64,000 nucleotides of DNA, taken from Escherichia coli. Lineage in GTDB: Bacteria; Pseudomonadota; Gammaproteobacteria; Enterobacterales; Enterobacteriaceae. Below the pieces are notes generated by a model. That model ran no database searches. It worked only from the letters and a program-made list of their open reading frames with translations, and had not been told where the DNA came from. The position numbers were made by a program, and so were the translations under genes. The stretch lies in the NCBI RefSeq assembly GCF_003334815.1, contig NZ_QOWO01000005.1. One strand, written 5' to 3'. Shown here in pieces: positions 63,447 to 64,000 of the stretch. The first letter of the stretch is position 1. Each line of letters begins with the position of its first letter.

Positions 63447-64000
63447 ATATTACCGGAGATATGACAGAGTGAAGATCAATATCACTCCCTGTTAAAAGGT
63501 TTTTGTCGTCTTAGGTAAAATACATGATTAATATCAATCATGTATTTTTACAGCAAGACAACCACGAACAAATTCAGGATTAAAATGTTTTACCGACTCC
63601 CCAACATAACCCAAATCAAGCGAACTAATTTGTGCCATTTCTTTATCTGTCAGTGAGAAATCGATTTTTGATGGGCATCTGCAATACTCTGAAGCAGACT
63701 ATACGGAAAATTCCACTGTCAGTCCCTCCATTAGGCATGAACAATGAGTCTACGTTAAAACGTAACCTCAAAGTAGTATGTGGATTTTGATATCACTTAT
63801 GCAAAAAATTCATTAATAATGTAGGACTGAAACCTCTCTATTTTCGGGGACAACGAAGCAGACTGAACCGCCCCGGGTTTCCTGGAGAGTGTTTTATCTG
63901 TGAACTCAGGCTGCCAGATCATTGTTTCCGATGGAAGCATAATAAGCTTTTTCTGCTTCTGCCGGAGGAGTATGGCCCAGCCTTTCCAGCAATCGTCGAT

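Follow-up and report, generated by a model that had tools for sequence, protein, structure and literature searches.

A probable IS629 right end in the spacer between rclC and a ykgA-like gene at the edge of an Escherichia coli window

The DNA analysed here, a 64,000-nucleotide stretch of an Escherichia coli contig (hereafter the window), almost certainly ends 137 bp inside a copy of the insertion sequence IS629 that was inserted in the pseudogene-rich spacer between rclC and a ykgA-like gene of an otherwise K-12-like chromosome. Two frames of the minus strand run open from the window edge, and the position of both with respect to the element and to the neighbouring host DNA can be followed from the features listed below.

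About 63534-63716, minus strand: aldo/keto reductase pseudogene remnant, the actual next host gene after rclC (PGAP annotation of the K-12 equivalent, and tblastn)
63717-63863, no strand: host DNA from the former reductase start to the insertion point, left part of the divergent reductase/ykgA-like intergenic region, 100% identical to K-12 MG1655 (L001:3342-3488)
63797-63940, minus strand: 47-aa ATG open reading frame taken from the open reading frame listing, read as a chance frame and not a gene
63861-63863, no strand: GAC, candidate 3-bp copy of a target-site duplication (host bases abutting the insertion sequence; the second copy would be expected beyond the window)
63864-64000, minus strand: right-hand 137 bp of IS629 (IS3 family), cut by the window edge; K-12 identity stops and insertion-sequence identity starts here, and the transposase genes read leftwards
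63864-63888, no strand: terminal inverted repeat (IRR), 25 bp, TGAACCGCCCCGGGTTTCCTGGAGA, beginning with TG as is typical of the IS3 family
63889-63905, minus strand: non-coding stretch of the insertion sequence, 17 bases, between the orfB stop and the IRR (from the coordinates of both)
63906-64000, minus strand: 3' end of orfB, last 30 codons (residues 267-296 of 296) and stop codon (63906-63908), matching exactly the C-terminal end of OrfB (296 aa) from the copy on plasmid pAA

The junction and the identity of the element

Megablast of positions 63376-64000 against 5,426 complete E. coli genomes showed that the first 488 bases of the query (63376-63863), which correspond to the DNA downstream of rclC, have counterparts in thousands of E. 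coli chromosomes, with 100% identity in K-12 MG1655, and that all of these matches end at position 63863. A three-way alignment of the window, MG1655 and the copy of the element on plasmid pAA of E. coli 042 places the switch exactly between 63863 (...GAAGCAGAC) and 63864 (TGAACCGCCCC...), and the BLAST coordinates agree. In MG1655, where the site is uninterrupted, the DNA past this point continues GCTACCAGTGCTTTTGCC..., and the K-12 locus is without BLAST similarity to window positions 63864-64000; the site is also empty in NCTC9041 and in most of the other E. coli genomes searched. The exact junction was absent from the 5,426 complete E. coli genomes (megablast) and was found neither in GTDB species representatives (scan with a 47-nt junction pattern) nor in JGI metagenomes (scan with a 32-nt pattern). 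The source strain may be the only one with this insertion, whose site could be used as a typing marker because it appears to be strain-specific. Since the junction was found nowhere else, what is said below about the DNA beyond the window is drawn from identical copies of the insertion sequence.

On the far side of the junction, positions 63864-64000 are 100% identical over 137 bp to positions 1-137 of a 1310-bp element on pAA (L003:2501-3810), and over its whole length this element shares 99.1% identity with the copy carried by phage BP-4795, whose OrfA and OrfB were annotated as IS629 by the depositors. These proxy copies agree in terminal repeat, in orfB C-terminus and in length of the element; the BP-4795 copy has 3 mismatches to the 137 bp of the window, and the visible tail of OrfB differs at one conservative position (...GNNDLAA in the window and pAA, ...GNDDLAA in BP-4795 and in strain SA186). 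Judged by this similarity the element is IS629 or a close isoform, the name being taken from the annotation of the BP-4795 depositors. IS629 was first sequenced from Shigella sonnei (Matsutani & Ohtsubo 1990, as cited in PMC3271280), and IS1203 and IS3411 are isoforms of it, with sub-types that differ by 4-5% (PMC3271280). IS629 is among the best-known insertion sequences of E. coli and Shigella.

The distribution of the 137-bp end is that of a mobile element, with multiple copies, variable locations and empty sites in related genomes. Searched alone, it was located at 24,886 places, chromosomal as well as plasmid-borne, in 4091 of the 5426 E. coli genomes, with a median of 3 and a maximum of 50 places per genome, and always under annotations reading 'IS3 family transposase'. 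The original prediction had considered the sequence at the edge too short to be identified; 137 bp are in fact sufficient, the element being multicopy and well annotated. The 25-bp IRR occurs once in the window, where 0 matches are expected by chance, and in the complete pAA copy 21 of its 25 positions pair with the other end (TGAACTGCCCCGGAAATCCTGGAGA). That element ends in ...GTTCA, giving the TG...CA ends, and the left repeat predicted for the window copy reads ...TCTCCAGGATTTCCGGGGCAGTTCA. A 'terminator-like' match at 63873-63885 was discarded, as it is merely the CCGGG...CCTGG part of the IRR.

The open frames at the window edge

Translation of the minus strand from the window edge reproduced both of the peptides on which the original prediction had based its claim of two open frames, and the third frame contains stops. 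Frame B (RRLLERLGHTPPAEAEKAYYASIGNNDLAA*) terminates at the stop codon 63906-63908, in agreement with the end given earlier (about 63907), whereas the stop codon of frame A (IDDCWKGWAILLRQKQKKLIMLPSETMIWQPEF...IINEFFA*) lies at 63797-63799, roughly 10 nt away from the end at about 63808 that had been proposed. That frames remain open for 30 and 67 codons up to a window edge is unremarkable in itself and not beyond chance (p about 0.24 for 30 codons and about 0.04 for 67, calculated with 3 stops among 64 codons and assuming uniform codon use). Frame B is recognized as real not by its length but because its nucleotides are 100% identical to those at the 3' end of a transposase gene of the IS3 family.

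The 30 residues encoded in the window (267-296 of OrfB) match no NCBIfam model when taken alone. The full OrfB of the pAA proxy, identical over these residues, reaches 315.7 bits against model NF033516 ('IS3 family transposase', cut-off 160) and contains the Pfam domains HTH_21, rve (residues 127-223) and rve_3 (residues 218-278)/rve_2, the last of which ends at residues 278-279, so the part seen in the window is the tail just after the rve_3 domain. Residues D136, D195 and E231 are present in the proxy OrfB, the second and third separated by 35 residues, and the window copy would be expected to share this DDE core. In the proxy copies orfA (108 aa) overlaps orfB (296 aa), and a programmed frameshift and an AL1L pseudoknot are annotated by PGAP in the pAA copy. 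Only three variable sites were seen in the 137 bp among four copies of the insertion sequence, too few for substitutions to indicate which of the frames is under selection.

The 47-aa open reading frame at the end of frame A is an accidental, chimeric frame that reads from the insertion sequence into host DNA. Its residues 1-26 derive from an alternative frame of the orfB 3' end and from the IRR, and its residues 27-47 from host intergenic DNA. In the pAA copy the equivalent of frame A runs into an unrelated flank and gives a different, 66-aa product with a different C-terminus. Early stops in the upstream sequence had been named beforehand as evidence against the open frames and, in the complete copy of the element, a stop 13 codons past the window edge does close frame A, assuming that the window copy continues alike. 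An exact-sequence lookup among 153 billion gene positions returned no gene on record for the 47-aa product, and no feature is annotated over its host part in K-12 or NCTC9041.

Two readings in which these frames would belong to other genes were weighed against this picture. It is scarcely credible that a genuine small protein is encoded by the 47-aa open reading frame (MLPSETMIWQPEF...IINEFFA), for example as a read-out product of the insertion. An ATG is present, the 47 codons are open and the first 26 residues, encoded by the insertion sequence, occur in every copy of the element; the C-terminal 21 residues, however, are whatever happens to flank the insertion sequence, so that the pAA product differs, and the frame is an alternative one to orfB that is shut upstream of the window edge in the proxy copy. 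The product is also without a gene record, its host part is unannotated in both reference strains, and the only sigma-70-like match in 63300-64000 is located on the plus strand (63492-63521), with none upstream of the open reading frame. It would be just as surprising if frame B were the 3' end of a resident host gene beside rclC, such as a domesticated integrase-like gene. Frame B is a real coding frame and lies on the strand opposite to rclC, but K-12, NCTC9041 and thousands of other E. coli have no interruption at the site; the 137 bp recur within genomes (median 3 places, maximum 50), on chromosomes as well as plasmids, and terminate in the element's inverted repeat. The empty sites together with the multicopy distribution refute a resident gene. 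The original prediction that one of the frames is probably the 3' end of the next gene beyond rclC holds in so far as frame B does form the 3' part of a real gene, but this gene is orfB of IS629 and not a resident chromosomal neighbour, the identity switching from K-12 to insertion sequence at 63864.

A further alternative concerns the completeness of the element. The IS629 end could belong to a truncated remnant, or could mark a rearrangement junction (left by a nested insertion, or where DNA between two IS629 copies was deleted or inverted), and the DNA beyond the window would then not be ykgA. Truncated IS629-type copies with the same right end do exist, as in strain 266917_2, where the transposase gene is cut by IS21; the pAA copy is without a matching flanking duplication, and matching direct repeats were reported at only 21 of 47 IS629 sites (PMC3271280). 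In addition, the junction is unique among the genomes searched, so that no second genome shows what follows it. Nevertheless, a remnant or a rearrangement is considered unlikely, with the 137 bp being 100% identical to intact copies and the rest of the window being collinear with NCTC9041 over its whole length, short-repeat copy number aside, with nothing there to suggest a rearrangement. Either event would alter only the completeness of the element and not its identity.

Proposed insertion and its consequences

IS629, a member of the IS3 family, uses orfA/orfB frameshifting and transposes by copy-out-paste-in (bioRxiv 10.1101/2023.06.07.543989), and it makes target duplications of 3-4 bp (PMC3271280). 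In the simple insertion of an IS629 copy that is preferred here, frame B encodes the last 30 residues of OrfB, which supplies the catalytic (DDE, rve) portion of the OrfAB transposase, and the terminal inverted repeat at 63864-63888 is the site that this enzyme binds and cleaves. In the family, the overlapping orfA and orfB are fused by a programmed -1 frameshift to give OrfAB, and the element moves by copy-out-paste-in, through a circular intermediate with abutted ends that is then inserted into a new target. The remainder of the copy past the window edge is expected to be complete, with GAC (63861-63863) as one half of the putative target duplication, and ykgA would follow the element; the flank predicted there is GAC (or AGAC), followed by GCTACCAGTGCTTTTGCCTTCGCC.... 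With 137 bp of the element in the window, its left end, its orfA and its frameshift site, and likewise the DDE residues and the target duplication, were seen in proxy copies only.

The insertion point is placed 147 bp upstream of the former reductase start and, going by uninterrupted genomes, the start codon of the ykgA-like HTH (AraC-type) gene, which is divergent from the reductase, follows 101 bp beyond it. The insertion is most likely neutral, since it falls between two loci of which one is already a pseudogene. It seems very improbable that it cuts the AraC-type regulator from its promoter, or drives the regulator from the left end of the insertion sequence; in such a case expression of the regulator would be changed and, possibly, regulation of the adhesin gene (fdeC) or of the rcl region. 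A promoter and terminator scan of 63300-64000 gave counts no higher than those of shuffled sequence, and Rfam models scanned over 63200-64000 with a lenient cut-off returned one chance-level match only (PVT1_3, E = 0.64).

The value of these assignments is mainly for annotation. The window edge can be labelled 'IS629, right end; orfB 3' end', the 47-aa open reading frame should not count as a gene, and the aldo/keto reductase remnant should be given as the true neighbour of rclC.

The host neighbourhood and other insertions in the spacer

The window is collinear with E. coli NCTC9041 through yaiP, lacIZYA, cyn, cod, prp, yah, bet, ykgEFG and rclRABC, with lacI-lacZYA intact. A Shigella origin, weighed as a reason why the junction is missing from the genomes searched, finds no support in these two features. 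Apart from the insertion sequence, the only breaks in collinearity with NCTC9041 come from short repeats, interspersed or in tandem (~100-bp units, REP/BIME-like by behaviour), whose copy number differs, at about 6508-6749, 23797-23999, 31499-31784 and 41261-41344.

The rclC gene ends at 63375, and the next host gene beyond it is the reductase pseudogene, which corresponds to neither of the open frames. Its K-12 equivalent is annotated by PGAP as 'aldo/keto reductase, incomplete, missing N-terminus'. With the intact 289-aa reductase of strain SA186 as query, tblastn located residues 248-289 at 63537-63662 (98%) and a frameshifted piece at 63632-63709, with the start codon region at 63716; with respect to SA186, the remnant carries two internal deletions of 91 and 585 bp. 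In NCTC9041 the ykgA-like regulator gene on the other side of the spacer is intact and is followed by fdeC.

Two inverted repeats could be seen in this area. A GC-rich hairpin at 63409-63446 (GGCGTCAGGC ... GCCTGACGCC; 10-bp stems and an 18-nt loop) is found 34 nt past the rclC stop, between the convergent rclC and reductase remnant; a simple terminator scan did not call it, and it is probably a terminator. A near-perfect AT-rich palindrome at 63517-63548 (AAAATACATGATTAAT / ATCAATCATGTATTTT), with 16-nt arms that directly adjoin, overlaps the stop codon of the reductase remnant. SA186, where the reductase gene is intact, has the palindrome too (87.5%), which may serve for protein binding or as a weak terminator.

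An IS629-like element in the same orientation, between the reductase and HTH regulator genes, is carried by SA186, BCE-1, AR_0089, FDN-4, VTB96937v, GPEC172 and GPEC102; in SA186 it is flanked by a TGG duplication on both sides. This SA186-type element is 98.6% identical to the pAA copy and lies 135 bp further from the reductase gene than that of the window, the reductase being intact there. The seven genomes cover 100% of the query and were examined as candidates for the same insertion, but were rejected on account of the displaced position of the element and its own TGG duplication; for the same two reasons the SA186-type insertion is taken as an independent event. In K-12 MG1655, within the rclC-ykgA-eaeH/fdeC neighbourhood, another element of the family, IS3 itself, is located inside ykgA about 750 bp further on, where it truncates the HTH gene. 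An IS1A copy, seen as an extra 777 bp, occurs within the 488 bp equivalent to 63376-63863 in STEC409, 23CRST017 and USDA-ARS-USMARC-51688. The region evidently tolerates insertions, as IS1, IS629-like and IS3 elements are all found in it in other strains. Elsewhere, the region equivalent to 44000-63863 is matched at ~100% in MSB1_9I and ML35 in two pieces whose span exceeds the query by 1,336 bp, which suggests another insertion of insertion-sequence size in the bet-ykg-rcl region of these two strains.
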